Shown here: in pieces, positions 10,707 through 48,684 of the stretch
How positions within the stretch are numbered: position 1 is the stretch's first letter
Layout of the letters: each line of letters begins with the position of its first letter
Source: Nitrospirota bacterium
GTDB lineage: Bacteria; Nitrospirota; Thermodesulfovibrionia; Thermodesulfovibrionales; UBA1546
Length of the DNA: 60,745 bases
NCBI GenBank assembly: GCA_009773185.1
Contig: WPIF01000017.1
Location: 1 to 60,745 of the forward strand
Direction: 5' to 3'
The notes under the pieces: model-generated
What the model saw: only the letters and a program-made list of their open reading frames with translations
The model's database searches: none
Told to the model about the DNA's origin: nothing
Translations under genes and position numbers: made by a program

Positions 10707-10718
10707 GAAAGTGCTATA

Positions 10719-10754
10719 TTGACTTTATCACTTAAATGATATAATAATGATATA
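10719..10754 (+). promoter_or_regulatory. candidate promoter with extended -10 plus AATGATATA direct repeats (possible Phd/ParE autoregulatory operator)
   Basis: TTGACT at 10719-24, a 15-nt spacer, then TGaTATAAT at 10737-45. AATGATATA occurs twice (10735-43, 10746-54), upstream of the phd-like gene. Confidence 0.35.
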
Positions 10755-10771
10755 GCAAAGAGGGGGGTACA

Positions 10772-11044
10772 ATGCCGGTTATAAAGCCAATATCTGATTT
10801 AAGAAACAAGGCAAACGAAATCTCAGAACTCGCACACAAATCTAGCGAGCCTATTTTTATCACCAAAAACGGCGAAGGTGATATGGTTGTCATGTCAATA
10901 GCTCAATACAGCAAGCTTCAGTTAAGAATTGACCTCTTCAGCAAGCTTGCAGTTGCTCAGGCCCAAAAGGCATCCGGTGATAAGGGGCGGACTCTAAGTC
11001 AGGTGATGAAAGACCTGAGGAAGAGACTTCGTGAAACAACATAG
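10772..11044 (+). CDS. Phd/YefM-family antitoxin
   Basis: 90 aa. 'ISDLRNKANEISELAHKSSEPIFITKNGEGDMVVMS' matches the Phd/YefM fold signature. Confidence 0.7.
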   Translation: MPVIKPISDLRNKANEISELAHKSSEPIFITKNGEGDMVVMSIAQYSKLQLRIDLFSKLAVAQAQKASGDKGRTLSQVMKDLRKRLRETT

Positions 11045-11339
11045 ATACGCTGTTCGGCTGTTAGAAATTGCAGAAGACGACCTTAACGAAATTGTGACCT
11101 ATATCGCCGCAGAAAATTTTACTGCCGCAGAAGCTCTTGCCGCAAAGATTGAAAAGAACCTGTCACATCTTTCTGTTCATCCCTTTATCGGGCGTGTCCC
11201 TGAGGAAGAGGAACTTACCAGATTAGGGTACCGCTACCTGATTGTCCAGGATTATCTTATCTTTTATACGATTGAAGGACAGACAATTCTTATTCACAGA
11301 ATTATCCATGGAGCAAGAGACTATTTGAGATTGCTTTAA
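11031..11339 (+). CDS. ParE/RelE-family toxin
   Basis: 102 aa. 'LIFYTIEGQTILIHRIIHGARDY' is a typical ParE/RelE C-terminus. It overlaps the antitoxin gene by 14 nt. Confidence 0.7.
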   Translation: MKQHRYAVRLLEIAEDDLNEIVTYIAAENFTAAEALAAKIEKNLSHLSVHPFIGRVPEEEELTRLGYRYLIVQDYLIFYTIEGQTILIHRIIHGARDYLRLL

Positions 11340-11379
11340 AACATCAAAGTGGAAGACCTGACTTGGAATACTCTTTCAA

Positions 11380-12021
11380 TTATCGTTGAATATGAGGCCT
11401 TAATTTTTTCTCGAATTCAGCAATTGCTGCATTAATTCGTGGCGTAAACTTATCATGTTCTGAATCGTTGCCCAAGTAATTAAGAACTGATGTTTCTTTT
11501 TGCCTTTCTTCTTCAGTTATTCGCGAAAACTCTTCCGGATGTTTTTTCCTCTCAAGCTTCATCTGTAGTGTTACCATCAGTTCTGCACGACACTCCCTTA
11601 GAGGTCGAATTACATTTTCAAATTCTGGCCCCCACTCAACTTGAGCTTCCAGCGTCTTTTCTTCAAGATCGTTGAATGCTTCACTCAAGATTTTCCATCT
11701 CTGCTCATAAACATGCGCCGTCCCCTCGTATTCAGTTCCCCTTTTTAAGTGACCCCAGTGATCACGCATTTCTTCAGGATATTCATAAGACCAAATTGCT
11801 GGATTCCTAACATGTTTGAACCCTTCTCTAACTTTATATACAGCCTTTAAGACGTCTTTTGCTTTTTCATATTCAGATTTACCTTTTAGCTCTTTACGCC
11901 ATGTGCTTAACCCCAAATAGGCAAATATCGCTGCCGATAGAGCTGCGAGTGCAACAATGATTTCTTTTATAATGCCCACGTAATCCTTCACAGCAGGCCA
12001 ATTTATCACATTGTTATCCAT
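11380..12021 (-). CDS. hypothetical membrane-anchored protein
   Basis: 213 aa with a single N-terminal TM (IIVALAALSAAIFAYLGL) and a charged, helical remainder. No recognisable domain. Shares an upstream motif with the flotillin gene. Confidence 0.4.
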   Translation of the reverse strand: MDNNVINWPAVKDYVGIIKEIIVALAALSAAIFAYLGLSTWRKELKGKSEYEKAKDVLKAVYKVREGFKHVRNPAIWSYEYPEEMRDHWGHLKRGTEYEGTAHVYEQRWKILSEAFNDLEEKTLEAQVEWGPEFENVIRPLRECRAELMVTLQMKLERKKHPEEFSRITEEERQKETSVLNYLGNDSEHDKFTPRINAAIAEFEKKLRPHIQR

Positions 12022-12148
12022 CGCATTATAAATCTTCCTTTATTCTGTCTATATGTAAGTTTACTGGATTCATGCGACAATATAGTACAAAAAGGCGTAT
12101 CTCCTTGCCAGATAAGTTCAGCCACTCACGCGGCATTGTTTATCTATA

Positions 12149-14173
12149 CTATGCCTTTTTTTCTTCCTTGATGCCCAATATTCCCCCTTTGTTCGAAAGA
12201 AACTTCATCAGTGTCGCCGCAAGGCCGTCCATGGAACCATTTCCGCCTGCAACAAGGATCTCTGGCATGATCTTTTTGTCGCCCTTCATGACCGCATCTA
12301 TTGCGTTCACGAGTGTTGTCCCTTGCTCGCCGACGGCTTTCCTGAGCTCTTCAGCAGCCTTGGCGCGGGCTAAACCAACCGCCTCTATCTCTGCGCCTTT
12401 TGCTTTGCCGGTTTCAGTCACATAGGATGAGTCGCCACGGCCCTCCGCCTCTCTCTTGTACTGGTAGGCCTCGGCTTGGATCTTGACCTGCTGGGCCTCA
12501 TTCCTTTTGATGTCTACGTTGACAGATGATTTTGCAAGCTCGGCCTGCATGTCTGCAGTGCCTTTTGCCTTTTCAGTAGAAATTCTCTGCTGCTGGGCCT
12601 CTTCCTTTTTCTTGTAGGTCTGTATCTCCTGATTTGCAATTTCTCTTTGGGTAAGAACCTGCACAAGCTCTTCAGGGAGGACGACATCCTGAATGTATAC
12701 GCCCCTTGTCTCAACATTATAATCCTTAAGTTTAGCTTCGATATATTCGGTAGCTGCGGACTGTATCTCGTCTCTCTTTTCAATGAAGGAAATTGCAGGC
12801 ATCGACTGAAGCTTATTCCGGAAGTGGTTACCGACAGCCGCCTGCAGAACCTCGTTGACAAGGTTTCTTACTGAACCTACCATTGAGATGACCTTGGATG
12901 CCTGAGTATCAGGAATATGTATTTGTACCTGCAGATCGATTTTGAAAACAAAACCTTCCCGCGATTTTGCGACAATCTGCTTAAGATTTTGATCAAGGTT
13001 ATGCGCTTGTGACGATGCTTCTGCCCAGTTCAGATTCAGGATTGCAGTGGGAACGATTTCAGCCTTGTAGCAATGAGAATTAAGTGGATACTTCCCTGTT
13101 CTGAGGGCCTCTCTCCATATACCCCTGTGTCCGGGTCTTACGATCGAGCCAAATTTGAATTCTTCTCCTGAGGTATCCTGCGATGGCAAGCCGACATATG
13201 ATTTAATGACCGCAACCTGTCCCTGCTCGATGACGAGCATTGGCGCGATCTCGACATTTACAAGAAACGGATTCAGATTGTACATACCGTAGAGCAAAGG
13301 ATCATGCTGAAGCCCGATTCTTCCGCCATTGTCGATAAAGGCCTGAAAGTCCTGATAGTTATTATGGACAGTGTTCTTGTTCGCAAGAATCGTTTCCATA
13401 AGTAATAGGTCGGAAGTCGCTTGAGCGCTTTCAAGTCTCGAAATGTCTTCAAAGCCGCCCAGTCTGCTTGCAATGTCACCTGCGGATAGCGGGTCGCCGT
13501 CGTTCACAGTTACAATGCCAACTACATCGATTGATTTGTTATCCTCATCAAGTCTCGGCTCTATGAGGACAACCTTGAGCTGTTCAGCTTTGAGCCCAAA
13601 GGCGTCCGGCGTGAGTTCATTACCCCTCTTGCCCCCCAGTTCCCTTATCTCGGGAGCTACAGGTATGCCGTAGACCTGTGCTTTAGTGATAACGAGAAAC
13701 CCGACGGGATGAATCGGCAGCAGTGAACCCGGAGGGAGAACAGGCCTCTGTACACCCTTCTGCCCGCCTTTTTCGATGAACTCCTTTACGCGCGAGAAAT
13801 TCGCAAACTCTTTTTTGTATACGGCCGATTTGGCGCCTATAGGCAGGGGATGGCCCACCTGAGCAATTACAATGCCGATTTCACCTGCGGGGACCTGCAC
13901 CCACGGATGTTTTTCAATGAGGTAAAGAGGCCATAGCTTGAACCTCAGCCCCGGCATCAGAAGTTCCTCCTGGTAGCCGGCTTCGCCATTAAAAGCGATC
14001 GGGTTATCATCAGACAGCTTCGAGATAGAAAAGCGCTTATTCACCAGACCGATTTCCGTAGGTCCGATGCTCTTAAAAGACTTATAGACCATTAAAGTTA
14101 CCGTTCCTATGAATCCCAGAACGACCAGAGTGAGTACCGGATGGTGAATTAAAAGAAAATTAAGTATGTCCAT
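12149..14173 (-). CDS. flotillin-like SPFH/band-7 protein (YqiK/FloT family)
   Basis: 674 aa. N-terminal TM, an SPFH core, and a C-terminal EA/Q-rich coiled coil ('EAQQQRISTEKAKG...AEAYQYKREAEGRG'). Confidence 0.75.
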   Translation of the reverse strand: MDILNFLLIHHPVLTLVVLGFIGTVTLMVYKSFKSIGPTEIGLVNKRFSISKLSDDNPIAFNGEAGYQEELLMPGLRFKLWPLYLIEKHPWVQVPAGEIGIVIAQVGHPLPIGAKSAVYKKEFANFSRVKEFIEKGGQKGVQRPVLPPGSLLPIHPVGFLVITKAQVYGIPVAPEIRELGGKRGNELTPDAFGLKAEQLKVVLIEPRLDEDNKSIDVVGIVTVNDGDPLSAGDIASRLGGFEDISRLESAQATSDLLLMETILANKNTVHNNYQDFQAFIDNGGRIGLQHDPLLYGMYNLNPFLVNVEIAPMLVIEQGQVAVIKSYVGLPSQDTSGEEFKFGSIVRPGHRGIWREALRTGKYPLNSHCYKAEIVPTAILNLNWAEASSQAHNLDQNLKQIVAKSREGFVFKIDLQVQIHIPDTQASKVISMVGSVRNLVNEVLQAAVGNHFRNKLQSMPAISFIEKRDEIQSAATEYIEAKLKDYNVETRGVYIQDVVLPEELVQVLTQREIANQEIQTYKKKEEAQQQRISTEKAKGTADMQAELAKSSVNVDIKRNEAQQVKIQAEAYQYKREAEGRGDSSYVTETGKAKGAEIEAVGLARAKAAEELRKAVGEQGTTLVNAIDAVMKGDKKIMPEILVAGGNGSMDGLAATLMKFLSNKGGILGIKEEKKA

Positions 14174-14298
14174 ACAACCCCCTTTTTATTTTTTAAGGCC
14201 TAACAATGATTATACAAAGTTTCCTTTTCCTAGATACATGCGACAATATAGCACAAAAAAGAAGCATTAAGGAAGCCGGGGAATGACAGAATGTAAAG

Positions 14299-14970
14299 CT
14301 ATCCTTTTATAACAACTTTCTTTACAGATTTTATTGCGGAAATTTCATCGAGGATTGTCTTCATCGGCACATCGTGTTTCAGGGAAATCGTGATAGTGTA
14401 TGTAATCTCAGCCTTTTGGATGTCTTTTTCATAGTCTGTACTCACTATACGCGCATCGCGAGATTTAAACACTGATTCAATCTTCTCTTCTTCTATTCCT
14501 CCGTCTGCAGTGATAGTCAAAAATTTAAATACTATCCTCGACATCTGTCTTTCAACAACTCTTAGTACGAGAAGAGAAAAAAGAGTTATGGCGCATGCTG
14601 CAGTTGCTGCAATATAGAACCCTCCGCCTACTGCAAGCCCGATTGCGGCGACCATCCATAGACAGGCTGCTGTTGTGAGGCCCTGTATCGTAATACCCAT
14701 CCTTAAGATAACGCCTGCCCCTAAAAATCCCACGCCTGTGATAGCTCCGGCAGCAATACGTCCGGGGTCAACGCGGATGTAGGCAGGATTCATATAGCTC
14801 AGGTGGTGGTAATATTCAGAGACTATCATAATGAGCACAGAGGCAACGCTTACCAGTAGCTGTGTTCTGAAGCCGGCAGGCCGTCCATGGACCTGTCTTT
14901 CAAAGCCGATAATGCCGCCTAATATCGCTCCAAGGACAAGGCGAAAGATTATCTCTGTCTCTGAAATCAT
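14299..14970 (-). CDS. MgtC/SapB-family membrane protein
   Basis: 223 aa. 'RLVLGAILGGIIGFERQVHGRPAGFRTQLLV' is the MgtC N-terminal signature. Confidence 0.8.
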   Translation of the reverse strand: MISETEIIFRLVLGAILGGIIGFERQVHGRPAGFRTQLLVSVASVLIMIVSEYYHHLSYMNPAYIRVDPGRIAAGAITGVGFLGAGVILRMGITIQGLTTAACLWMVAAIGLAVGGGFYIAATAACAITLFSLLVLRVVERQMSRIVFKFLTITADGGIEEEKIESVFKSRDARIVSTDYEKDIQKAEITYTITISLKHDVPMKTILDEISAIKSVKKVVIKG

Positions 14971-15017
14971 GACTAATTATATCAGTTTTAAAGTGGTTTA
15001 TGTTTTAATAAATAAAT

Positions 15018-15575
15018 ATGGATATATTTACAATCTTATTTATAGCAGTCGGTTTATCAATGGACGCCTTTGCCGTATCTGTCACGAGCGGGTTTACCAT
15101 CAAACGCCTCCACATCAATAATGCCCTTAAGATTGCAGTATCTTTCGGGATGTTTCAGGCAATAATGCCTGTACTGGGATGGGCAGCAGGGCTCGGTTTC
15201 AGGGGCTTTATTTCAGGAGTTGACCACTGGATAGCATTCGGGCTTTTGAGCATCATAGGCGTTAAGATGATATTTGAGTCAAGGGCAATGGATTCAGCTA
15301 AAGAACCAACAGATCCTTTGAATATCTATACCCTGCTGATTCTGTCTGTTGCAACGAGCATTGATGCGTTGGCAGTCGGGCTCAGCCTTTCACTGTTAAG
15401 CGTCTCTATTATAAGCCCTTCAGTAATAATCGGTATTACAACTTTTCTTTTTTCCTTTGCGGGTGTTTACATCGGCAAAAGGGCAGGGCATTTTTTTGAA
15501 AAGAAGATTGAAATAGCAGGCGGTTTAATTTTGATTGGTATAGGAGTAAAAATACTTATTGAGCACCTGCGGTAA
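15018..15575 (+). CDS. mntP: manganese efflux pump MntP family
   Basis: 185 aa. 'LSMDAFAVSVTSG' is the DUF204/MntP repeat signature, duplicated internally ('SIDALAVGLSL'). Confidence 0.75.
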   Translation: MDIFTILFIAVGLSMDAFAVSVTSGFTIKRLHINNALKIAVSFGMFQAIMPVLGWAAGLGFRGFISGVDHWIAFGLLSIIGVKMIFESRAMDSAKEPTDPLNIYTLLILSVATSIDALAVGLSLSLLSVSIISPSVIIGITTFLFSFAGVYIGKRAGHFFEKKIEIAGGLILIGIGVKILIEHLR

Positions 15576-16736: not shown

Positions 16737-16858
16737 GCAGGATATAGCATCCTCGCTCATTCTCGGTCTTCGACCTCCGAGGTTTTGCCCGCTTTTATTA
16801 TTAGAAATTTTACTGTATGAATTGCAGGCAAAAAAACCGCTCAAATGCCATATCCTGC
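16737..16858. repeat. MITE-like repeat element copy (GCAGGATAT...ATATCCTGC termini)
   Basis: Shares 'CGCTCATTCTCGG..TCCGAGGTTTTGCC...GGCAAAAAAACCGCTCAAA' with copies at 27021, 31996, 33340 and 48511. Has terminal inverted repeats. Confidence 0.5.
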
Positions 16859-16896
16859 ATTTCATTTATAACTATAGTGATAGGGAGGGTTAATTT

Positions 16897-17541: not shown

Positions 17542-19922
17542 ACCGTGTTCTCATCAACATCAAGGGCCTTGTGCAGGGCGTTGGTTTCAGGCCGTTTGTT
17601 TATAACCTTGCGAAATCCCTTAACCTGAAAGGCAGTGTAGCCAATACTGCTGATGGAGTAACTATTGATGTGGAGGGCGATGATGTAACTTTTTTTATAG
17701 AGATGCTTTCAAAAGAAGCGCCGCCATTATCAAAAATAATTAATGTTGATATCACGCCAATGCCTTTTTGCGGATACGAAGGCTTTGAAATACTTAAAAG
17801 CAAAGACAATGGAAGTTCTACGCTTATTTCTCCGGATATCTCTGTATGTGATGACTGCCTCAAAGAGATGTTTGATAAAACCGACAGGCGCTATCTCTAT
17901 CCGTTTATAAACTGCACAAACTGCGGGCCGAGGTACACGATTACAAATGCAGTCCCGTATGACAGGCAAAACACCACGATGTCTGTTTTCAGGATGTGCC
18001 CTGAATGCGAGGCTGAATACAATAATCCCGGGAACAGGAGATTTCATGCTCAGCCTAATGCGTGTCCGGTCTGCGGGCCGGAAGTTAAATTAGTTGTCAG
18101 CCATCAGCTGTCAGCTGTCAGCCAGGACCAAAATCCAATAGAAACTGCGATACGGCTATTAAAAGATGGGAAAATTATAGCAGTAAAAGGGCTTGGCGGT
18201 TTTCATATTGCATGCGATGCGAAAAATAAAGATGCGGTAGAAAGACTGAGGCTTGCAAAAAGAAAAAGCAACAAGCCTTTTGCGCTTATGGCGCCTGATA
18301 TCGGGACAATAGAAAGATACTGTGAGGTATCAGAGGAGGAAAAGAAGATTTTAAATTCCAATAAAAGGCCTGTTGTTCTTTTGAGGAAGAGGGCGGATGC
18401 TGATTCTTTGCCTGAGGCAGTAAGTCCTGATAACCAGTATCTTGGTTTTATGCTTCCCTACACTCCGCTGCATTATCTGTTGTTTTATTATTCCTTATCA
18501 GGGCTGACTTACCCCCCCATCCCCCCCTTGGTAAGGGGGGGCGAGAGGGGGGTGGCTAATTTCGATGCCCTTATCATGACGAGCGGAAATCTTTCTGAGG
18601 AACCGATTGTTATTGATAATGATGAGACAATCTCAAAATTATCCGATATAGCAGATGCATTTTTAATCCATAACAGGGATATTTTCATGCGCACTGATGA
18701 TTCGGTTGTCAGAAGTCACTTTTTAAGGCATAAGGCAAAACCGCTGTTTATCCGCCGTTCGCGCGGATATGCGCCTGACCCTATATTTTTAAATGACGAT
18801 GGCTCTGAGGTGCTTGGGTGCGGGGCTGACATAAAAAACACATTTACGCTTACAAAGGGCAGTTATGCAATCCCGAGCCAGCATATAGGAGACATGGAAA
18901 ATTATGAGACAGTAAAGTTTTTTGAAGAGAGCCTCAGGAATCTGAAAGCTGTTTACAGGGTCGAGCCTGTTGCCGTAGCTTATGACCTGCATCCTAATTA
19001 TTTTTCAACGCAATGGGCATTAGCGCAGGGCGCAGAGGGCAAAGGGCAAAGAGTTGAAACTTATGGCATTCAGCATCATTATGCGCATATAGCGTCTGTG
19101 ATGGCAGAAAACGGCATTAAGAAAAAGGTCATGGGCGTTGCATTTGACGGTACGGGTTACGGCACTGATGGTAATCTCTGGGGCAGCGAGTTCTTAATTG
19201 CTGACCCGGAGGATTTTAAGAGAGCGGGGCATTTTAAATACATCCCATTGCCGGGTGGCGAGATGGCAGTCAGAGATCCCTGGAGGGTGGCAGTGAGTTA
19301 TATAAAAGATATTGCAGGGGATGAGGCTATGCATTATCTGGGAGCCATAGGGTTTATTGAAAAATATGGCAAAGATAACCTGAATAATATTCTGAAAATA
19401 ATTGATAACCGGGAATTTTCACCTCTGTCATCAAGTGCTGGGAGGCTTTTCGATGCAGTTTCGGCAATGCTTGGAATATGTGATAGGAATACATTTGAGG
19501 GTGAGGCTGCAATGGCGCTTGAATCTTATACAACGGATGAAATAGATGATGATTACCCTGTGGATGTTATATTCAAGGAGAAGATAATAGTTGATTTTTC
19601 TTTGACGATGCTGCGGCTGATAGAGGATATAGCATGCGGGACTGCCAGGGGTATTATCGCTGCAAAGTTTCATAATACTATCGTGACGGTTATCGAAAGA
19701 GTCATCCTGAAGCTAAACACAATTTATAAATTATATGATGCTGTTTTAAGCGGAGGAGTTTTTCAGAATATGTATCTTCTTAAAAATACAATGAATAGGC
19801 TCAGGTCCGCAGGGATTAATGTCTATATCAACGAGAAGGTGCCGTCGAATGATGCAGGCATATCACTTGGACAGGCGTATATAATAAGGGAGAGGCTAAA
19901 GTCAGAAAAGTGGAAGGCGTAA
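17538..19922 (+). CDS. hypF: carbamoyltransferase HypF
   Basis: Acylphosphatase-like N-terminus (VQGVGFRPF), two Zn-finger pairs (CDDC...CTNCGPRY; CPEC...CPVCGP), YrdC-like 'KGLGGFH' and a Kae1-like C-terminus. ATGA overlap with hypB. Confidence 0.9.
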   Translation: MNRVLINIKGLVQGVGFRPFVYNLAKSLNLKGSVANTADGVTIDVEGDDVTFFIEMLSKEAPPLSKIINVDITPMPFCGYEGFEILKSKDNGSSTLISPDISVCDDCLKEMFDKTDRRYLYPFINCTNCGPRYTITNAVPYDRQNTTMSVFRMCPECEAEYNNPGNRRFHAQPNACPVCGPEVKLVVSHQLSAVSQDQNPIETAIRLLKDGKIIAVKGLGGFHIACDAKNKDAVERLRLAKRKSNKPFALMAPDIGTIERYCEVSEEEKKILNSNKRPVVLLRKRADADSLPEAVSPDNQYLGFMLPYTPLHYLLFYYSLSGLTYPPIPPLVRGGERGVANFDALIMTSGNLSEEPIVIDNDETISKLSDIADAFLIHNRDIFMRTDDSVVRSHFLRHKAKPLFIRRSRGYAPDPIFLNDDGSEVLGCGADIKNTFTLTKGSYAIPSQHIGDMENYETVKFFEESLRNLKAVYRVEPVAVAYDLHPNYFSTQWALAQGAEGKGQRVETYGIQHHYAHIASVMAENGIKKKVMGVAFDGTGYGTDGNLWGSEFLIADPEDFKRAGHFKYIPLPGGEMAVRDPWRVAVSYIKDIAGDEAMHYLGAIGFIEKYGKDNLNNILKIIDNREFSPLSSSAGRLFDAVSAMLGICDRNTFEGEAAMALESYTTDEIDDDYPVDVIFKEKIIVDFSLTMLRLIEDIACGTARGIIAAKFHNTIVTVIERVILKLNTIYKLYDAVLSGGVFQNMYLLKNTMNRLRSAGINVYINEKVPSNDAGISLGQAYIIRERLKSEKWKA
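18512..18556. repeat. G/C-rich hairpin element inserted in frame in hypF
   Basis: CCCCCCCTTGGTAAGGGGGGG encodes ...PPIPPLVRGGERGV... This is about 20 extra residues relative to E. coli HypF between LPYTPLHxLL and LxMTSGNLS. The same hairpin occurs intergenically at 32061 and 33386. Confidence 0.45.
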
Positions 19923-27020: not shown

Positions 27021-27132
27021 GCAGGACAGTATTTTCGCTCATTCTCGCTCCGCTCCGAGGATTTTGCCTCTTGATTTTTATTAATTTGCTGTCTGATTAT
27101 CGGCAAAATAAACCACTCAAACACTATCCTGC
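27021..27132. repeat. MITE-like repeat element copy
   Basis: GGCAGGACAG TATTTTCGCTCATTCTCGCTCCGCTCCGAGGATTTTGCC...CGGCAAAATAAACCACTCAAACACTATCCTGCC, with GGCAGG/CCTGCC termini. Confidence 0.5.
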
Positions 27133-27148: not shown

Positions 27149-27171
27149 TGGTCGGGGCGAAAGGATTTGAA
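27149..27171. repeat. 23-bp direct repeat identical to the 3' end of tRNA-Pro (attL-like site)
   Basis: TGGTCGGGGCGAAAGGATTTGAA is identical to 28906-28928 inside the tRNA-Pro gene. Confidence 0.55.
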
Positions 27172-27192
27172 ATCAAAAGCAAGTCTGTGTAT

Positions 27193-27573
27193 CTACACCG
27201 CTATTTCAAGCAGAATCTTATCGTACTTCACCATTGGCGTTGTCTTTTCCCTGCCATTGGTTTTAGCTTTTTCAAGCTCAAGCAGTCCCAATTCTGCAAG
27301 ATAATGTACATCGTCTGAAACATTCTTGAGGTTTCTGCTAATCAGTTTTGCAAGTTCATAGATGGATTGTGGATGTTTTCCCCTGATAACCTGAAGGATT
27401 TTAACCCTCTCCGGCGTTATTGCCTTTCTCATTGTTTCCAGGCTGTCAAAATATATTCCAGGTTTCTTTTTCTTGACCTTATCTCCGCTCTTAAGCTTTT
27501 TCATAACGCTTTTTGCATCGCCAAGCACTTCCTCAATGCTCTTAATCCCTATGGTTACATTTTTAACTTTCAT
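27193..27573 (-). CDS. HTH-domain protein, putative partner of the DUF6516-like protein
   Basis: 126 aa. 'ERVKILQVIRGKHPQSIYELAKLISRNLKNVSDDVHYLAELGLL' is a winged-HTH. It overlaps the upstream gene by 11 nt. Confidence 0.45.
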   Translation of the reverse strand: MKVKNVTIGIKSIEEVLGDAKSVMKKLKSGDKVKKKKPGIYFDSLETMRKAITPERVKILQVIRGKHPQSIYELAKLISRNLKNVSDDVHYLAELGLLELEKAKTNGREKTTPMVKYDKILLEIAV

Positions 27574-27847
27574 TGTTCATCACCTCTTTTAGGTCTTTGT
27601 AAAAATCTTCAAAAAGTTTATCTATTCCCTGAAACTTATAGGGCATTGCCTTATCGCCATAATGCCGATGGTCTCCTTTGCCTTCGGCATTGTCATATCC
27701 TAAAACACGCCTGCCATGTCTGATATACACCAGCGAGTATTTATACCCATGCGGTTTAGCTGGTGATTTAGGGACTGACCATACTTTAGTCTCAATAATG
27801 CCTCCGTGTTTGTCTTCCACCTTGTCATGTATAAGAAGTTCAGTCAT
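27563..27847 (-). CDS. DUF6516-like small protein (HGYKYSLVY / GYDNAEGKGDHRH motifs), possible TA-like toxin
   Basis: 94 aa. The conserved-looking block 'VWSVPKSPAKPHGYKYSLVYIRHGRRVLGYDNAEGKGDHRHYGDK' is recalled from memory as DUF6516 / TumE-like, not verified. Confidence 0.4.
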   Translation of the reverse strand: MTELLIHDKVEDKHGGIIETKVWSVPKSPAKPHGYKYSLVYIRHGRRVLGYDNAEGKGDHRHYGDKAMPYKFQGIDKLFEDFYKDLKEVMNNES

Positions 27848-28054
27848 ATGATAGTTTTATAATACCACATATTGCAGGATTATTCAAGAGATGGGAGATG
27901 TTATCGGGAACTATGATTTAACTTCTGCGTCCTGTCATTAATTTTAATTTTTATCTGCACGACCTGAGAGCTTTGAAAATGTATTTTGTAGGTTTGACCC
28001 CAAATGTTTGTTTCTTCTTTCTTACGCCTAACGCCGTTTTATCCGGCGTCTTAT

Positions 28055-28855
28055 TCACCCTGTTTGTGTAGCAGAAAATAATAGTTCTTCTAAAAACTTA
28101 CGATAAGGTTCATTAAACCTCTTAAATTGGAGGGTTCTTGTACCGCCAGACTCGGTTTCGGTTATGATAAAACGACACACCTCAAGTTCCCTCAGATGAG
28201 CAACTTTCCATTCTCTTGTTTCATCGACCCACTTATCAAGATCACTGCCTGTGTCTGAACGAAAAGAAAATTTTCCTTCAAGAACAAACCGTTTTAGTAA
28301 ATTCTTGGCTTTAGGACTTATTGACTTGAGTTTTTCGACAATCAATGCTTTTTGTTCAGTTTCAAAGCCAGTCAACAATAAGAGCTTGTCAAGGAGCAAT
28401 GGAATCTTATTGTCTAGACCTCCGAGAAGAGATTTTGCATCTGTATGCTCGATATAAATCTGGTCATCAATATCGAATGGTAGTTTTTCTTTTTGGCCTG
28501 GGTTTAATAAAAAAATTAAAGGTTTTTTTAGTCCCTGCATTAATCCAGTTTCTTGAAAAACATTGTAATTGAGAGGAGTTAGAGAAACAATTCCAAAATC
28601 AGATGCCAAAGCATATCTACAAATATTGCAAAATTTTGTACCTGTACCCCCTTCCTTGTCAGCATTAAACAAACGCCATGTTCTTTCACTGAAATATCTT
28701 TCTATTGTCGGTTGCAACCATTTATCTTGATCACGATATTGAAATATAAAAAAAGCTTTATACTTTTCAGGAGTCAATAAATAATCTTTGTCAGGTGAAG
28801 AAAGATTACACTTCATTGGATAATGATCTGGACAAATAAAATTGAATTTTCCCAT
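28055..28855 (-). CDS. hypothetical protein on the tRNA-Pro islet
   Basis: 266 aa. N-terminal 'FFIFQYRDQD...FNADKEGGTGTKFCNICRYALASDFGIVSLTP' has a Rossmann-like alternation that could be a TIR/SLOG-like fold. Unassigned. Confidence 0.35.
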   Translation of the reverse strand: MGKFNFICPDHYPMKCNLSSPDKDYLLTPEKYKAFFIFQYRDQDKWLQPTIERYFSERTWRLFNADKEGGTGTKFCNICRYALASDFGIVSLTPLNYNVFQETGLMQGLKKPLIFLLNPGQKEKLPFDIDDQIYIEHTDAKSLLGGLDNKIPLLLDKLLLLTGFETEQKALIVEKLKSISPKAKNLLKRFVLEGKFSFRSDTGSDLDKWVDETREWKVAHLRELEVCRFIITETESGGTRTLQFKRFNEPYRKFLEELLFSATQTG

Positions 28856-28905
28856 ATCAATCTCTCGTTTTACAGAAAACTATTTGATTTGAAATAAATT
28901 TTTCT

Positions 28906-28982
28906 TGGTCGGGGCGAAAGGATTTGAACCTTCGACCCCACGGTCCCGAACCGTGTGCGCTACCAAACTGCGCTACGCCCCG
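28906..28982 (-). tRNA. tRNA-Pro (anticodon CGG)
   Basis: The reverse complement reads CGGGGCGTAGCGCAGTTTGGTAGCGCACACGGTTCGGGACCGTGGGGTCGAAGGTTCAAATCCTTTCGCCCCGACCA. It has a 7-bp acceptor stem, a D-arm, the anticodon loop TTCGGGA, a T-arm GGTTCAAATCC and an encoded CCA. Confidence 0.85.
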
Positions 28983-29142: not shown

Positions 29143-29451
29143 ATGCCGATATATGAGTACGAATGTCAAAGCTGCAAAGAGGTACACGAAAAGGTTCAGA
29201 AATTTGCTGACGAGCCATTGACTATATGCCCTAAATGCGGGGGAAAACTGAAAAAGCTTATTTCAAATACCTCATTTGTCCTTAAAGGCACAGGATGGTA
29301 TAAGACGGATTATGCATCAAGCGCCAGCAGGACTGCAATAGAATCAGGGAAAAAAGAAGATAAAAAAGCAGAGACTAAACCGGAAACTAAAACAGAGACT
29401 AAGGCAGAGACCAAGACAGAGACTAAAACAGAGGCAGCGGCCAAGGCATAG
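29143..29451 (+). CDS. FmdB-family zinc-ribbon protein with C-terminal ETK repeats
   Basis: 102 aa. '[16 protein letters not shown]...ICPKCGG' is the FmdB CxxC...CxxC signature. The tail has (K/A)ETKTETK repeats. Confidence 0.6.
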
Positions 29452-30292: not shown

Positions 30293-30715
30293 ATGAAAAA
30301 AGTATTTATAGTGTTAGTGGCAGCAGTTTTTGTTCTCGGAGCTATGAGCATTTCTTTTGCAAAACAGGCAGGCAAGGCTAAAAGCCCTGTTTATTATGTC
30401 TGCGATTGCGGACCGGACTGTAATTGCAACTCTATGTCCAAAAAACCAGGAAACTGTACATGCAATAAAAAAATGAGGCAGATGCATCTTCTTGAGATTG
30501 ATGGCGACACAGCGCTTTTCTGCACCTGCGGAGGAGGTTGCGAGTGCAAAATAGACCCGACTGACAAGGCCAAATGCGGATGCGGAAAGCCTGTCAAAAA
30601 GGTCAGCCTCAAGGGCAAGTATGTATGCGCATGCGGGCCGGATTGTAAATGCGGGTCAATATCCGATAAGCCCGGCAAATGCAAATGCGGCAGTGAGATG
30701 AAATTGGTTGAGTAG
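30293..30715 (+). CDS. secreted cysteine-rich protein with two C-x-CGPDC-x-C modules (putative metal-binding)
   Basis: 140 aa. Signal peptide, then 'YYVCDCGPDCNCNSMSKKPGNCTCNKKM' and 'YVCACGPDCKCGSISDKPGKCKCGSEM', plus 'CTCGGGCECK' and 'CGCGKP'. About 24 Cys in total. Confidence 0.55.
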   Translation: MKKVFIVLVAAVFVLGAMSISFAKQAGKAKSPVYYVCDCGPDCNCNSMSKKPGNCTCNKKMRQMHLLEIDGDTALFCTCGGGCECKIDPTDKAKCGCGKPVKKVSLKGKYVCACGPDCKCGSISDKPGKCKCGSEMKLVE

Positions 30716-31995: not shown

Positions 31996-32150
31996 GCAGG
32001 GAAAAATGTTTTCGCTCATTCTCGCTTCGCTCCGAGGTATTTTGCCTCACCCCCCTTTAGTTCCCCCCTTGGTAAGGGGGGAATTTAAGAGGGGTGGGTT
32101 TAGGAGTATCGGCAAAATAAAACCGCTCAAACACAATTCCCTGCCTTTTT
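31996..32150. repeat. MITE-like repeat element copy (longest, contains the CCCCCCTTGGTAAGGGGGG hairpin)
   Basis: GGCAGGGAAAAATGTTTTCGCTCATTCTCGCTTCGCTCCGAGGTATTTTGCC...TATCGGCAAAATAAAACCGCTCAAACACAATTCCCTGCC. Confidence 0.5.
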
Positions 32151-33313: not shown

Positions 33314-33339
33314 TTTAATTAAGACAAAAGCGGGTGGAA

Positions 33340-33480
33340 TAGTCTTTGAGCGGTTTTATTTTGCCGATATTCCACCCCTCTATGTCCCCCCTTGCCAAGG
33401 GGGGAATTTAAAGGGGGTAGAGGCAAAATTCCTCGGAGGGCAACGCCCGAGAATGAGCGAAAAGATTATTTTACCCGCTT
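33340..33480. repeat. MITE-like repeat element copy (inverted orientation)
   Basis: Reverse-complement homolog of 31996-32150, including the CCCCCCTTGCCAAGGGGGG hairpin and GAGAATGAGCGAAAA. Confidence 0.5.
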
Positions 33481-40316: not shown

Positions 40317-40421
40317 AAGGCAACAGAAGCCCGCTGAACTCAGGTTTGGCTGTATATGGGAAACCTCTTGCGTAAGTGTTATAGTAAAGATATTATTAAC
40401 ATTCAGGCAAAAGGAGCAATC

Positions 40422-41885
40422 ATGAATATCAAAAAGTATTTGCTCGGTTTGACTTTATGCTTGTTTTTTATGGTTAGCGGCTGCGCTATTGCTCTTGGCC
40501 CTCAAGCAGTTGACCTGAAGGAATCCCAGAGGCCGCCTGTCCTCAGGCTTGAGCAGGTCAGCGAGCAGAAGAGCGGGAGTGGGAGTGAGGAATGGCCGGG
40601 ATTCCGCGACCTTCTGATAAGAGCGCTGAACCAGCCTCCAGCCTCCAGTATCTTCACGAAGGACAGCTCCGGCTTGGCCCTGAAGATTGAGCTCAAATCC
40701 TCCCATGAGAGCGACACGTCCCGGCTCATCGGGCTGGGGCTCCTCAGCATGGGAACACTGGGGATCCTTCCTCTTCATTACCACTCGGACTGGCCGGTCA
40801 AGGGCGATGTCACGATATATTCGGGGGATGGGAAGGTGCAGGGCCAGTACCATGTCCAATCGACGGGAACCTATGACATCCAGGCGTACCCGCTCACGAT
40901 GTTTACCCTGTTCGGGGCAAGCTTTCAGGGGGACGCTGACGCCAAAGAGATACTCCAACGGACGGCCAATGACATCGTATCTCAGATTATGAGGGCGGTT
41001 GATTCCGACTATGAAAAGCTTGCTGTAGTTTATCGTTCCCAGATGCTGGCAAAGGCGGAACAATCGGTGGTGGAAGCGTCATCCAGGGATGAACTGCGCA
41101 TTATAAAATCTGATGTGGACGATATACCTGCGGCAAAAGCAAAGATAAATAGTAATAAATCATATGCCATTGTTATCGGAATCGAACGGTACCGTCAGAA
41201 GCTTCCGAGGGCCGACTTCGCAACGCATGATGCCCAGACAGTGACTGACTATTTAACCAAGGTGCTTGGATATCCCGAAGAAAATGTAATTACATTATTA
41301 AATGATAGGGCTCTAAAAAGTGATTTTGAAAAATATTTTGAGAAGTGGCTTATGAATAATGTAGAGAAGGAAGGCACCGTGTTTGTGTATTACTCAGGCC
41401 ACGGCGCTCCGGACCCCAGGACAGGCAGCGCCTATCTTGTGCCCTATGACGGCGACCCTTCATTTATTGACCAGACAGGGTATTCTTTGAAGAGGATGTA
41501 CGAAGCCCTCGGAAGGCTTCAGGCAAAAGAGATTATCGTTGCGCTTGATTCCTGTTTCTCAGGCGCAGGCGGGAAGTCTGTGCTTGCAAAAGGCGCAAGG
41601 CCTCTGGTTATGAACCTTGAACAGGACATAAAGCTTTCAAAGAACATGACTGTCATGTCTGCCTCGTCAGGCGACCAGATCAGTTCAACCTATGACGAGA
41701 AGGGACATGGCTTATTCACTTACTTCATGCTCAAGGGGATTAAGAACGAAGACGTTGTCAAGCAGGATGGTTCTCTGGATATCAGTGAACTGCATTCCTA
41801 CCTTAAATCCCAGGTGGAGCGCATTGCCAGAAAGCAGTACAATAACGAACAGACTCCGCAGCTGATTGTGCCGAAGAAGAATTAG
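40422..41885 (+). CDS. lipoprotein with C-terminal caspase-like (peptidase C14) domain
   Basis: Lipobox MVSGC. Caspase His 'VYYSGHG' and Cys 'DSCFSGAGG'. C-terminal 'QYNNEQTPQL'. A conserved in-frame leader starts at 40356. Confidence 0.7.
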   Translation: MNIKKYLLGLTLCLFFMVSGCAIALGPQAVDLKESQRPPVLRLEQVSEQKSGSGSEEWPGFRDLLIRALNQPPASSIFTKDSSGLALKIELKSSHESDTSRLIGLGLLSMGTLGILPLHYHSDWPVKGDVTIYSGDGKVQGQYHVQSTGTYDIQAYPLTMFTLFGASFQGDADAKEILQRTANDIVSQIMRAVDSDYEKLAVVYRSQMLAKAEQSVVEASSRDELRIIKSDVDDIPAAKAKINSNKSYAIVIGIERYRQKLPRADFATHDAQTVTDYLTKVLGYPEENVITLLNDRALKSDFEKYFEKWLMNNVEKEGTVFVYYSGHGAPDPRTGSAYLVPYDGDPSFIDQTGYSLKRMYEALGRLQAKEIIVALDSCFSGAGGKSVLAKGARPLVMNLEQDIKLSKNMTVMSASSGDQISSTYDEKGHGLFTYFMLKGIKNEDVVKQDGSLDISELHSYLKSQVERIARKQYNNEQTPQLIVPKKN

Positions 41886-41937
41886 AAATGCGAAGATTAG
41901 AGGAAGAAGGGCGATAGGTTTTTATGAGAGGTGGGTT

Positions 41938-43422
41938 GTGAAAAGGCATAATTTTATTTCTTTAATCAGCATAATCTTTATCCTGCTTGCGGGTATGGCT
42001 ATGGTAGGCTGTGCGACACCGTTAATAAATGCTGTAGAGCGCGGGGATATCGATGAGGTTAAAAAACTGCTCGAAACTGGCGCTGATCCTAATGCATCCG
42101 CGGACATGAGTCCCTTAAATATTGCGGCAAGTCGCGGAGACATTAACATGGTTAGGATTCTGCTCGATAAAGGGGCTAATCTCCATGCCGGGGTTTTCCC
42201 TCCCATTAGGTTTGCAGTAAAGGGAAGCAACTATGAGGTTGTGAAATTACTGTTAGACAAGGGTGCTGACCCAAATAGTTCAGGGACTTTTGGTTGCGGC
42301 TATGAACAGCTTTTAGTAGAAGCTGCGGGAATGATAGGAAAAGGCAGCATTAAAATCGTAGATTTGCTAATTGAGAGAGGTGCCAATTTTGATGTCGCTT
42401 TGTCATACTGTGAACGGCACTCAAGTGATTTCATGTGTGGTTCCAATTATGCTAAATGTTATGCGACATTGAAGCAGATTAAGACGAAACGGGATGAAAT
42501 AGCAAGACAAGAAGAAAAAGAACAGAAACTTACAAAAGCCAAAGAAATAGAAGCGAATAAGGCAAAAGAGATGAAAGAGATAATTAAAGAAGTCGTTGCT
42601 GAAACAGCTAAGACCCAAAAGCAAGCAGCCCGGCCTTCTTCTGTCCAGTCCGACATAGAAAAACCATCGTTTACTCCTGCAGAAAAAATTATCAGCGATA
42701 ACGACCTCGCTGTCATCATTGGCATAGAAGGCTATCAAAGTCTGCCAAAGTCCGATTATTCTTATGACGATGCAAAGCTTGTTAAAGACTATATCAAGGC
42801 TCTTGGTTTTAAAGAAAGGAATATCGAACTTATTACTGATGAAAAGGCAACGCTTTCCAGTATAACCAAAACCCTGGAGGCATGGCTGAAAAACAAGGCA
42901 AAGAATGATAGTAAAGTATTTGTATACTATTCAGGGCATGGCTCGCCTGACCCGGCAACAGGAGAGGCATATCTTGTGCCGTATGACGGAGACCCGAATT
43001 ATCTTGCTGTGACTGGTTATCCTTTAAAGAGGCTCTATGACAACCTCGGCAAGCTGCAAGTCGCTGAGGTTACGGTAGTGCTTGATGCTTGTTTTTCAGG
43101 CGCTGGAGGAAGGAGCGTTCTTGCGCAGGGAGCAAGGCCGTTAGTAATGGTGGCAGATATTAAAACAATTCCATCCAATATGGCTATCCTCTCAGCAACG
43201 CAGGGTTCTCAGATAAGCACATCATCTTCTGAAAAAGGACATGGGGTTTTCACTTATTATTTTTTGAAAGCTTTGAAAGGCGGAAAGAAGACAATCGCAG
43301 AGATTTACGAATATATAAAACCGCTTGTGGAAGATGATGCAAAACAGTTGAATGTCCAGCAGAGCCCGAGCATAAGCCCGGATGTTGAGAAATTGAAGGG
43401 AAGGTTTGAGTTGAGGAAATAA
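41938..43422 (+). CDS. ankyrin-repeat lipoprotein with C-terminal caspase-like domain
   Basis: Probable GTG start (VKRHNFISLIS...MVGC lipobox). Ankyrin repeats ('GADPNAS...LNIAASRGDINMVRILLDKGANLHA'). Caspase dyad 'YYSGHG' / 'DACFSGAGG'. C-terminal 'QQSPSISPDVEKLKGRFELRK'. Confidence 0.7.
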   Translation: MKRHNFISLISIIFILLAGMAMVGCATPLINAVERGDIDEVKKLLETGADPNASADMSPLNIAASRGDINMVRILLDKGANLHAGVFPPIRFAVKGSNYEVVKLLLDKGADPNSSGTFGCGYEQLLVEAAGMIGKGSIKIVDLLIERGANFDVALSYCERHSSDFMCGSNYAKCYATLKQIKTKRDEIARQEEKEQKLTKAKEIEANKAKEMKEIIKEVVAETAKTQKQAARPSSVQSDIEKPSFTPAEKIISDNDLAVIIGIEGYQSLPKSDYSYDDAKLVKDYIKALGFKERNIELITDEKATLSSITKTLEAWLKNKAKNDSKVFVYYSGHGSPDPATGEAYLVPYDGDPNYLAVTGYPLKRLYDNLGKLQVAEVTVVLDACFSGAGGRSVLAQGARPLVMVADIKTIPSNMAILSATQGSQISTSSSEKGHGVFTYYFLKALKGGKKTIAEIYEYIKPLVEDDAKQLNVQQSPSISPDVEKLKGRFELRK

Positions 43423-43427
43423 AACAA

Positions 43428-43922
43428 ATGCTTGATTATCTTGCTATATTCAAAAAATTGAACGAAAAAAAGATTCGGTATCTAGTAGTTGGAGGGATTG
43501 CTGTTAATCTGCATGGTATCCCGAGGATGACGTACGACGTAGACCTGATTCTTGATCTTGAAGATGAAAACATAAAGGAGTTTTTGCAATTATTAAAGGG
43601 ATGGGGATTTAAACCCAAGATTCCTGTGGATATTATGGATTTTGCAAAAAAAGAAATCAGGGAAAGCTGGATAAAAAATAAGAATATGAAGGCATTTAAT
43701 CTTGTAAACACTGAATGGGCAATCTCAGAAATAGATATTGTAATAGATTCACCTGTTGACTATAAGAAGGGGCATAAGAGGATGAAACATATTATGCTTC
43801 ATGATGTTTCTATCCCCGTAATATCCATTGATGACCTTATAAAAATGAAACATATTACAGAGAGGCAGCAGGATGAGGCAGATATAAGATACTTAAGGAA
43901 ACTGAAAAATGCGAAAAAGTAA
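43428..43922 (+). CDS. nucleotidyltransferase-fold protein (MNT-like)
   Basis: 164 aa. 'YLVVGGIAVNLHGIPRMTYDVDLIL' is the minimal-NTase G-x...D-x-D signature. No HepT partner seen. Confidence 0.55.
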   Translation: MLDYLAIFKKLNEKKIRYLVVGGIAVNLHGIPRMTYDVDLILDLEDENIKEFLQLLKGWGFKPKIPVDIMDFAKKEIRESWIKNKNMKAFNLVNTEWAISEIDIVIDSPVDYKKGHKRMKHIMLHDVSIPVISIDDLIKMKHITERQQDEADIRYLRKLKNAKK

Positions 43923-44109
43923 AACACAGGGCTTTGACTACTATTTAAGCAAAGAGGCAATAGAGCGGTATAGGGAGAAGCCCCCTGAACTCAGGCTTAA
44001 ATGGCTGTATATGGGGAACCTCTTGCGTAAGGGGTACAGCAAGGATGTTATTAAGATTCAGGATAAATTCAGGGAAGGGAAGTAAGTAATGATTTCAGGC
44101 GGTGGGGTT

Positions 44110-45543
44110 ATGAAAACGAAGGGTAATTTTATTTCTTTAATCAGCGTAATCTTTCTCCTGCTTGTGGGTATGGCGATGGGAGGGTGCGGGACCGCATTGA
44201 CACAGGCGGCAAAAGAAGGAGACATCTCTGCCCTCCAGAAACTGATTGAGGAAGGTGCAGATATTAATGAAGGCGCTATAGTAGGAGGTAGTATGAATGG
44301 CTCGCTTTTAAGCCAAGCTGCATACTACTGCCGTATTGAGGCGGTAAAGTATTTAATACATAAAGGGGCTGATATAAATAATGCAACAGGTTGGACAGAT
44401 TATGGTGCTAGTGGTGGAGGGTTGAGACCTTTGCATATGGCTGCAAGATCTGGTTGCACAGAGGCAATAAAACTTTTGCTCGATGCAGGCGCTGACATTG
44501 ATGTAAGAGCAAATAAGATGTTCGGGTCTGCTCTGGCAATAGCCGCATATCATGGTAATATTAAGAGCGTAAAATATTTAATTGAAAGAGGGGCTGACGT
44601 TGATGATGCAAGCCAGGTTCTTAAAGGATTGGCAGATGACAAAATGAAAGGGAGAGGTGGTAAAGAAGGCCTGGCATTGCTCCAGAAGTTTGAAAAGCAG
44701 AAAATTGCGATCCGGCTTTCTGAAAATATACCTCCTTCCATTGTTGCCAAATCCGATGTTGACGAACTTCCTGCAATAAAAGCAAAACTAAATAGAAACT
44801 CCTACGCTATCGTTATCGGCATCGAGAGCTACCGCCAGAAGCTTCCAAAGGCTGATTATGCGGTAGCTGATGCAAAGGCAATGACAGAATATCTCACAAA
44901 GGTCATGGGCTATCCGGAGGAAAATGTAATAACACTTATCAATGAGCAGGCGACAAAAAGTGATTTTGAGAAATATATCGAAGAATGGCTGCCGAAGAAC
45001 ATTGAACCAAACAGCTCAGTGTTCATCTACTACTCAGGGCATGGTGCGCCTAATACCAAGACAGGTGATGCGTTCCTGGTTCCTTACGACGGCGACCCTA
45101 ACTTCATAGAAAAAACAGGATATCCGCTTAAAAAACTTTACGACAACCTTTCCAAACTTCAGGCAAAGGGAGTAATCGTTGCACTTGATTCCTGCTTCTC
45201 GGGCGCAGGAGGGCACAGTGTTCTCGCACAGGGAAGCCGTCCTCTGGTCATGAACCTTCAGACAACTCTATCTCCCGCAAAAAATATGATAATCATGGCA
45301 GCATCATCCGGCAGCGAAACAAGCTCGACTTATAACGACAAGGGACATGGCTTGTTTACGTACTTTATGCTTAAAGGCATAAAAGGCGAGGCTGATATGA
45401 ATGAGGACGGCAAAATAGAAATAGAGGAGTTGTACCAGTACATGAAACCCAATGTTCAGAAGATTGCCAGAAGGCTTTATAATAATGAGCAGACGCCTCA
45501 GTTGATAGCGCCCGAGAAACAGAAGATATTCTTAAAGGATTGA
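44110..45543 (+). CDS. ankyrin-repeat lipoprotein with C-terminal caspase-like domain
   Basis: 'MKTKGNFISLISV...MGGC', ankyrin repeats, 'YYSGHG' / 'DSCFSGAGG', C-terminal 'LYNNEQTPQL'. Preceded by a conserved leader / 24-codon uORF (44011-44085). Confidence 0.7.
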   Translation: MKTKGNFISLISVIFLLLVGMAMGGCGTALTQAAKEGDISALQKLIEEGADINEGAIVGGSMNGSLLSQAAYYCRIEAVKYLIHKGADINNATGWTDYGASGGGLRPLHMAARSGCTEAIKLLLDAGADIDVRANKMFGSALAIAAYHGNIKSVKYLIERGADVDDASQVLKGLADDKMKGRGGKEGLALLQKFEKQKIAIRLSENIPPSIVAKSDVDELPAIKAKLNRNSYAIVIGIESYRQKLPKADYAVADAKAMTEYLTKVMGYPEENVITLINEQATKSDFEKYIEEWLPKNIEPNSSVFIYYSGHGAPNTKTGDAFLVPYDGDPNFIEKTGYPLKKLYDNLSKLQAKGVIVALDSCFSGAGGHSVLAQGSRPLVMNLQTTLSPAKNMIIMAASSGSETSSTYNDKGHGLFTYFMLKGIKGEADMNEDGKIEIEELYQYMKPNVQKIARRLYNNEQTPQLIAPEKQKIFLKD

Positions 45544-45630
45544 GATAGCAATAGCTGTACTAATTTAATTAAGATTCTTTTGCTTTGTGATAAAATAGCT
45601 AAAGAATATAAAAAGTTTGGGGGTGAGACG

Positions 45631-45834
45631 ATGAAGACGGTTAAGATTGTTTTGCCGGAGAAACTTGGCATGGAGCTTAAGAATTATGTAAAAAGCGGAT
45701 GGTTTATTGATGAGTCAGAGGTTCTGCGAACTGCTTTGCAGGAATTCATTCGTCATAATCGGCTTAAGTTGATGGAAAAATTTATGAAGGAAGATATTGA
45801 GTGGGCATTAAAAATAAAAGCCGGCGCTAAATGA
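45631..45834 (+). CDS. UPF0175-family small protein (antitoxin-like partner of DUF3368)
   Basis: 67 aa from ATG 45631 (RBS GGGGTGAG). '...SEVLRTALQEFIRH' is UPF0175-like. 4-nt overlap with the downstream PIN gene. Confidence 0.5.
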   Translation: MKTVKIVLPEKLGMELKNYVKSGWFIDESEVLRTALQEFIRHNRLKLMEKFMKEDIEWALKIKAGAK

Positions 45835-46334: not shown

Positions 46335-46355
46335 AGTGCGGAAGAGATTATTTGG

Positions 46356-48488: not shown

Positions 48489-48510
48489 ATTAAGGCAATG
48501 CAATACCCAG

Positions 48511-48662: not shown

Positions 48663-48684
48663 TATTAAAAAAAGGGTGATTAAA

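Follow-up and report, generated by a model that had tools for sequence, protein, structure and literature searches.

We report the analysis of a 1.7-kb islet inserted beside a tRNA gene in contig WPIF01000017.1 (assembly GCA_009773185.1) of a Nitrospirota bacterium of the order Thermodesulfovibrionales; the whole stretch of DNA that was analysed, 60,745 nucleotides in length, is referred to below as the window. The islet occupies positions 27172-28905, downstream of a tRNA-Pro(CGG) gene, and is bounded by an exact 23-bp duplication of the 3' end of that gene, beyond which, on the far side, lies a patatin gene of the host. Three open reading frames (ORFs) on the minus strand fill the islet, at 27193-27573, 27563-27847 and 28055-28855, and encode, in that order, the predicted antitoxin TumA, the predicted toxin TumE and a 266-aa protein without family assignment. 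An earlier note, made from the letters of the window, had counted three minus-strand genes here, which the ORF coordinates bear out, and had read the repeats as the attL/attR footprint of an integrative element that is now either a decayed remnant or a hitch-hiker mobilised in trans.

The duplicated tRNA end and the same site in related genomes

The sequence TGGTCGGGGCGAAAGGATTTGAA has two exact occurrences in the window, 27149-27171 and 28906-28928, both on the minus strand. No further site was found in the window even when three mismatches were allowed, and shuffled sequences predict none, so that the exact duplication claimed by the earlier note stands and the 23-mer is not, within the window, the dispersed repeat that the same note had considered. 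The proximal attachment (att) copy, 28906-28928, is the 3' end of an intact and functional tRNA-Pro(CGG) gene on the minus strand at 28906-28982, again as had been claimed; this gene, the integration target, is the sole tRNA of the window according to ARAGORN, is corroborated by Rfam RF00005 at 65.2 bits and has a promoter-like site, TTGACT-18-TATTAT, upstream at 29019-28990. Read in the sense of the tRNA the 23-mer is TTCAAATCCTTTCGCCCCGACCA and comprises the T-loop, the 3' strand of the T-stem, the 3' acceptor strand, the discriminator base and CCA; its first base is the first of the T-loop and its last three are the encoded CCA. The distal att copy, 27149-27171, is a displaced tRNA-Pro 3' end adjoining the host flank and matches the proximal copy at 23 of 23 positions, with identity ending sharply on both sides. 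The insert lies 3' of the tRNA, with the partial copy next to the patatin gene, as is predicted for integration into a tRNA 3' end. The composition of the islet is atypical, with a G+C content of 36.5% (34.7% in the gene for the 266-aa protein) against 43.3% for the window. The proposal that two tandem islets are present, marked by an internal third att copy, was rejected, since no site rises above chance: the best candidate for a degenerate third 23-mer inside the islet has 8 mismatches, which is in the range of shuffled sequences.

Species-representative genomes were scanned with the flanking patatin protein, which yielded 80 loci (designated here by L numbers, as are the further loci and contigs retrieved), and in ten of these a tRNA-Pro(CGG) lies downstream of patatin in an orientation like that of the window. 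In six of them, all from Thermodesulfovibrionales genomes (L014, L015, L016, L017, L019 and L021), the gap between patatin and tRNA-Pro measures 7-246 bp and there is a single 23-mer; these are the unoccupied sites which the earlier note had proposed to look for, and in L021 the tRNA ends 7 bp past patatin. The same site in L055 holds a 4.4-kb island with the identical 23-mer at positions 825 and 5248 of that locus, its distal copy being separated by 27 bp from the patatin stop codon and its duplication ending at the same nucleotide as that of the window, after ...TTTGAA. Given the six empty relatives and an island whose identical 23-mer is cut at the same base, we read the 23-bp duplication as a genuine scar of site-specific integration, and the attL/attR interpretation is in this respect supported.

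The duplication might instead be a local, partial doubling of the tRNA end, or an artefact of assembly, into which the genes were inserted by illegitimate recombination. Such an origin would be in keeping with a window that is a metagenome-assembled contig and with cargo genes that each behave as a gene-sized cassette, homology being limited to the ORF. We nonetheless consider it very improbable, because the same 23 bp are duplicated, with the same boundary, in the independent assembly of L055, because that boundary is the first T-loop base, a known sublocation of recombination (bioRxiv 10.1101/2020.11.02.365908), and because the displaced copy adjoins the host flank, where the model of integration would place it; a 23-bp repeat would also seem too short to produce a 1.7-kb mis-join that keeps synteny on both sides.

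Other relatives show the site in further states. The closest of them, L013, whose patatin gene has 89.5% nucleotide identity to that of the window, has kept tumA at 94% identity, while most of tumE and the distal 23-mer are gone, and its similarity to the window ends at 27949, short of the gene for the 266-aa protein. In the metagenomic contig L127, where a second core is absent, the site is taken up by HicAB together with an orphan tumA and a Fic gene, and in L020 and L027 it is occupied by 1.1 kb with a Bro-N protein and by 0.8 kb with a small membrane protein, respectively. These varied occupants and the losses in L013 mark the tRNA-Pro site as a hotspot with a visible decay series.

Next to tRNA-Pro in all relatives, and at 29143-29451 in the window, there is a gene for a Zn_ribbon_8 (FmdB-type) protein with a low-complexity tail of (E/T)TK repeats.

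A predicted toxin-antitoxin pair and a putative defence gene

The first two genes form a pair. The gene tumE, at 27563-27847 on the minus strand, encodes a predicted toxin of 94 aa, of the family formerly known as DUF6516 (Pfam TumE PF20126, 3.3e-14; 53.1 bits against a curated cutoff of 23.4), and tumA, at 27193-27573 on the same strand, encodes its predicted antitoxin, a winged-helix protein of 126 aa that belongs to the HVO_A0114 family (Pfam HVO_A0114, 4.2e-25; phrog_11214, 2e-27), whose sequence also matches MarR/HTH_20 weakly. The two genes overlap by 11 bp, of 63 loci retrieved with a relative of TumA 45 have tumE beside it, and a promoter-like site with an extended TG element, TTGAAT-17-TATTAT, which is a consensus match only, lies upstream of tumE on the minus strand at 27859-27887. 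Experiments on the TumE-TumA superfamily have revealed a toxin that inhibits translation and is neutralised by the product of the neighbouring gene, toxicity and neutralisation having been shown in six gammaproteobacterial pairs (PMC10584680). The pair of the islet shares with that superfamily (Durairaj et al. 2023, PMC10584680) a Pfam match above the curated threshold, an overlapping, bicistronic arrangement, a small partner of putative DNA-binding type and a pairing that persists across loci; unlike the tested pairs, of gammaproteobacterial subcluster 1a, it has the toxin gene first and a partner that is a winged helix of HVO_A0114 type. We conclude that tumE-tumA is a predicted toxin-antitoxin module. 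The earlier description of these genes as helix-turn-helix and DUF6516-like was right for both, and is here refined to a TumE-TumA module (PF20126, HVO_A0114).

The islet is probably kept through toxin-antitoxin addiction. This would fit the survival of both genes at the tRNA-Pro site in the window and in L055, and it would likewise fit the persistence of tumA in L013 and L127, from which tumE has been lost or in which it is truncated. At 3809-3945 of L013, as a separate observation, tumE is down to its first few codons beside an intact tumA, which leaves an orphan antitoxin as in L127.

The third gene, at 28055-28855 on the minus strand, encodes the 266-aa protein, a putative defence effector for which searches of Pfam, NCBIfam, PADLOC and the sequences of the PDB returned nothing significant. 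An AlphaFold model built from 50 homologues (mean pLDDT, the predicted local distance difference score, of 85) contains an alpha/beta domain at residues ~30-136, a helix of 38 residues and a C-terminal winged helix. MilB, DNPH1 and BcmB take the top ranks when the model is searched with Foldseek, and the predicted structure has the flavodoxin-like fold of TIR and nucleoside 2-deoxyribosyltransferase (NDT) proteins. The window protein gives no above-threshold match to the TIR-type or Nuc_deoxyrib_tr profiles of Pfam, and sub-threshold matches to the latter are confined to two distant relatives, P0234 and P0298. Residue E102, in a motif NVFQE(T/I)G at the start of a helix, is invariant in the 50 sequences, and C8, C16, C76 and C79 are invariant or at least 90% conserved among them; we take the motif to resemble that of the catalytic glutamate in NDT and DNPH1.

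A profile search of 1.84 billion representatives retrieved 710 proteins at E <= 1e-3. The family has about 90 close members, and its more remote relatives carry the N-terminal domain in fusion with leucine-rich repeat (LRR), tetratricopeptide repeat (TPR), KaiC-like ATPase or Roc GTPase modules. Fusion to sensor-type modules of this sort is typical of the effectors of conflict systems. Given its modelled TIR/NDT fold and the fusions of its relatives, the 266-aa protein is probably a nucleotide- or NAD-cleaving defence effector. In the fold predicted for residues ~30-136 it is like the TIR/NDT/DNPH1/MilB effectors (ThsB, Cap12 TIR-STING, TIR-SAVED), and like TIR-type immunity effectors its domain has relatives fused to LRR, TPR and NTPase modules; it is unlike them in having a conserved four-cysteine site, a C-terminal winged helix and no conserved partner gene. 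What the earlier note had called an unknown protein still belongs to no family that we could find, and is refined to a predicted TIR/NDT fold with a C-terminal winged helix.

Elsewhere the three genes are not found as a set. Between the pair and the third gene lies a non-coding spacer, 27848-28054, which contains a mosaic junction: homology to L055 stops at 27889 and homology to L013 at 27949, while homology to other copies of the gene for the 266-aa protein begins at 28059. Rfam recognised the tRNA alone when the islet was scanned, with no match in the spacer. Homologues of the 266-aa protein, at 37-84% amino-acid identity and, where a source is named, from Nitrospirae, Syntrophobacteraceae, Thermodesulfobacteriota and KSB1, are encoded by single genes amid unrelated housekeeping genes; nucleotide homology around them ends within ~20 bp of the ORF, and in the eleven loci examined neither a tRNA nor tumE-tumA (tumEA) lies nearby. 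Among the retrieved loci, which number more than 160 related ones, none holds tumEA and the gene for the 266-aa protein together. A three-gene system, or a conserved partner of the 266-aa protein, was accordingly rejected as a candidate, for homology is confined to the ORF and the small ORFs downstream of it are mutually unrelated. The tumEA genes of the window and of L055 have 88% nucleotide identity, against 70-75% for the flanking patatin and TIM genes, which points to horizontal exchange between the two loci rather than shared descent. By the extent of their homology, then, the genes of the islet form a mosaic rather than a unit that moves as one.

The missing recombinase and the origin of the islet

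Neither a serine nor a tyrosine recombinase is encoded in the islet or elsewhere in the 60-kb window, and none of its 187 ORFs of at least 80 aa gave a match either in phmmer searches or with a small profile built on five tyrosine integrases. The absence of an integrase from the islet, noted earlier, is thus borne out and extends to the whole window. Related elements, several of which belong to the same order, bear on the agent of integration. In L152/L154 a 10.6-kb element abuts tRNA-Glu(ctc); besides a tyrosine integrase it encodes an HTH_17 protein and a PrimPol/DnaB_C primase, its terminus repeats 44 nt of the tRNA 3' end, and a short serine recombinase gene lies at its far end. L158 contains a similar element at tRNA-Glu(ttc), which ends in a 49-nt copy and is followed by two integrase-less islets bounded by copies of 17 and 23 nt, the 23-nt copy extending from T-loop to CCA. 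The array in L158 spans 6724-15400 and consists of the integrase element, a mini-islet with GIY-YIG and an islet with a gene of 671 aa that has no Pfam match. Another integrase-less islet, in L131, carries tumEA and a Gp49/HTH pair between duplicated tRNA-Leu sequences of at least 56 nt. At 4420-9008 of L123, downstream of tRNA-Val(gac), there are at least four toxin-antitoxin-like pairs, tumEA among them, and embedded in this array, at 7832-7873, 42 nt of the tRNA 3' end recur.

In three viral contigs of IMG/VR a partial tRNA-Pro fragment includes the 23-mer without mismatch; the gene for a tyrosine integrase lies ~1.2 kb from this fragment in L159 and directly adjacent to it in L162. The T-loop is a described sublocation of tyrosine integrases (bioRxiv 10.1101/2020.11.02.365908), and since the identity block of the islet starts there we favour, by analogy, a tyrosine-type integrase for the original event. 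The islet is like the T-loop islands and prophages of such integrases (P4-like and genomic-island types) in a repeat that runs from the first T-loop base to CCA with the tRNA regenerated, in its insertion downstream of the tRNA and in the tRNA-Pro fragment shared with the phage contigs L159 and L162. It is unlike them in that it has neither integrase nor excisionase, and the att fragments of the phages are longer (at least 35 nt) than its 23-bp core.

The only recombinase at the homologous site in a relative is of another kind. In L055 a serine recombinase gene with one in-frame TAA lies 185 bp from the tRNA and matches Resolvase (2e-31) and the Recombinase domain. The partial match to the latter in Pfam had raised the idea of a truncated large serine integrase, which was rejected because at least 928 homologues have the same size, 244-257 aa, the L055 protein being full length for this family. 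Related ~247-aa proteins, with Resolvase and Recombinase domains and no zinc-ribbon or coiled-coil region, are encoded in L055 (4323-5063), L152 (10001-10744), L156 (1742-2479) and L158 (10001-10747), in each case at one end of a tRNA-integrated element by an att copy, and many homologues are found on contigs of 6-7 kb; they could be resolvases, invertases or integrases.

If integrases, such proteins might have founded the island family, with the recombinase gene later replaced by that of the 266-aa protein. The L055 gene does occupy the position which the latter has in the window, the homologue in L156 abuts the tRNA 3' end and those in L152 and L158 adjoin the distal att copy. Large serine integrases, however, carry zinc-ribbon and coiled-coil domains that the short protein lacks. 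In L152/L154 and L158, moreover, it is an internal or accessory gene, and it is a tyrosine integrase and an excisionase-like HTH_17 gene that stand at the tRNA; the orientation of its gene relative to the tRNA varies, being co-directional in L152 and L158 and convergent in L055 and L156; the L055 copy has a stop codon; and tblastn with that recombinase detected no trace of it in the window. Identity blocks of 23-49 nt that begin in the T-loop or the anticodon loop also follow the pattern of tyrosine integrases (bioRxiv 10.1101/2020.11.02.365908), and we regard an origin by serine recombinase as quite unlikely.

It is likely, in our view, that the islet is the integrase-less remnant of one element, or of several in succession, that integrated site-specifically into the T-loop of tRNA-Pro(CGG). 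Under the standard model, integration would have rebuilt the 3' end of the tRNA from the element's own copy and pushed the original 23-bp end of the host to the far side, beside patatin. The recombination genes would have been lost later and the cargo reshuffled gene by gene, which would leave tumE-tumA with its own promoter-like site and a horizontally mobile gene of low G+C content for the protein with TIR/NDT domain and winged helix. An incoming element with a matching integrase could insert beside the islet and carry it out.

With both att copies intact in sequence the islet formally qualifies as a cis-mobilisable element (CIME), as defined in work that also sets out the accretion model (PMC5704250), a model which the tandem arrays in L158 and L123 fit. 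Like the CIMEs related to ICESt1 and ICESt3 of Streptococcus thermophilus, which are decayed ICEs or IMEs between attL and attR (PMC5704250), it is flanked by att cores at the 3' end of a target gene and devoid of genes for integration and transfer, at a site that has been used repeatedly in relatives, and tandem arrays of remnants occur in the same order (L158). It differs from them in that no conjugative or mobilisable parent element was seen for the tRNA-Pro site, nor any conjugation genes. Its host is an uncultivated Thermodesulfovibrionales known as a metagenome-assembled genome, it is, at 1.7 kb, at the small end of the range, and its cargo is a mosaic of genes that moved independently. 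It is best read as a decayed island of CIME type at a tRNA hotspot.

Several points weigh against this interpretation. No intact, integrase-bearing element with a core of exactly 23 bp was found at tRNA-Pro(CGG), so that the original recombinase is assigned by analogy, and the one recombinase at the homologous site, in L055, is the short serine protein with its in-frame TAA and not a tyrosine integrase. From the distal core to the tumA stop codon there are 22 bp in the window and 133 bp in L055, and these segments are non-homologous; the two islands are hence not simply the descendants of one insertion. The distal copy, furthermore, is still perfect, which would fit a recent origin or continued use; as a neutral copy of 23 bp often remains unchanged at the divergence seen, it does not discriminate decay from activity. 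All comparison sequences, finally, are metagenome assemblies.

Continued use is the core of another explanation, by which the islet is an active, minimal hitch-hiker, an integrase-less cassette whose att sites are recombined in trans, by an integrase from elsewhere in the genome or from an arriving element, and which spreads as a parasite of that element. Perfect 23-bp copies in both the window and L055, where the DNA beside the distal copy differs, would be expected of such a cassette, as would a tumEA that is closer between the two loci than the host flanks are. Integrase-less islets bounded by tRNA ends do recur in the order (L131 and the array of L158), and other bacteria offer documented cases in which such elements are mobilised in cis (PMC5704250). 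Yet the three genes occur together in none of the more than 160 related loci, and the homology of each stops at the borders of its ORF, which leaves no conserved element body or ends. L013, for its part, retains tumA with no distal att copy; the islet has no excisionase, replication or oriT-like function; and among the assembled sequences neither a circular form nor a second insertion site was seen. A dedicated hitch-hiker is for these reasons unlikely, and of the two fates that the earlier note had offered we favour the decayed remnant, which may retain some mobility in cis or in trans.

A more speculative proposal, to which we give little credence, is that mini-cassettes without integrase, anchored by a toxin-antitoxin pair and with ends that run from T-loop to CCA, represent a lifestyle of their own in Thermodesulfovibrionales, so that the islet is not dead. 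If so, recombination in trans would be the work of resident tyrosine integrases, or of the widespread ~247-aa serine recombinases that lie at the ends of related elements, and single defence genes, such as that for the TIR/NDT-winged-helix protein, would be shuttled between tRNA hotspots.

As a decayed island, the islet would belong to a familiar class of genomic fossil; its significance is modest. It offers a clean comparative example in the uncultivated Thermodesulfovibrionales, with empty sites, an occupied relative and a decay series, and it illustrates how tRNA hotspots may gather tiny islets without integrase, in which toxin-antitoxin and defence genes are the last to survive. Of more interest are its side products, although neither alters current concepts: an unannotated TIR/NDT-winged-helix family, which is a plausible candidate single-gene defence system, and the family of ~247-aa serine recombinases at the ends of tRNA-integrated elements.

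Repeats and other features of the window

The interval that separates the patatin stop codon from the distal att copy, and so is not part of the islet, contains at 27021-27132 a repeat that resembles a miniature inverted-repeat transposable element (MITE) or a repetitive extragenic palindromic (REP) sequence. The earlier note had pointed out this MITE-like copy abutting the distal repeat; it is real, and is one of six related copies in the window with the conserved ends TTTTCGCTCATTCTCG... and ...ATCGGCAAAATAAAACCGCTCAAAC. The family measures ~110-150 nt, and its other members lie at 32000-32148, 33333-33470 (reverse complement), 48513-48660, 16753-16862 and 50326-50375. Independent contigs of the same population with an identical patatin (L163 and L164) break at the adjacent MITE-like copy and are uninformative as to heterogeneity of the site; the source reads SRR8863431 and SRR8863436 are among those with the identical patatin protein. 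Three G/C-rich palindromes of the type CCCCCCTTGGTAAGGGGGG were also noted, at 32049-32095 and 33375-33418, inside copies of the repeat, and at 18511-18554.

Further along, at 40356-58407, are six paralogous Peptidase_C14 (caspase) genes, three with ankyrin repeats and one with CARDB, which have conserved nucleotide blocks in common and similar N-terminal leaders. A perfect inverted repeat of 29 nt has its arms, 2.5 kb apart, at 49931-49959 and 52488-52516. The ORF at 30293-30715 encodes a secreted-looking protein of 140 aa with repeated, cysteine-rich CxCGxxCxC motifs and no Pfam match.

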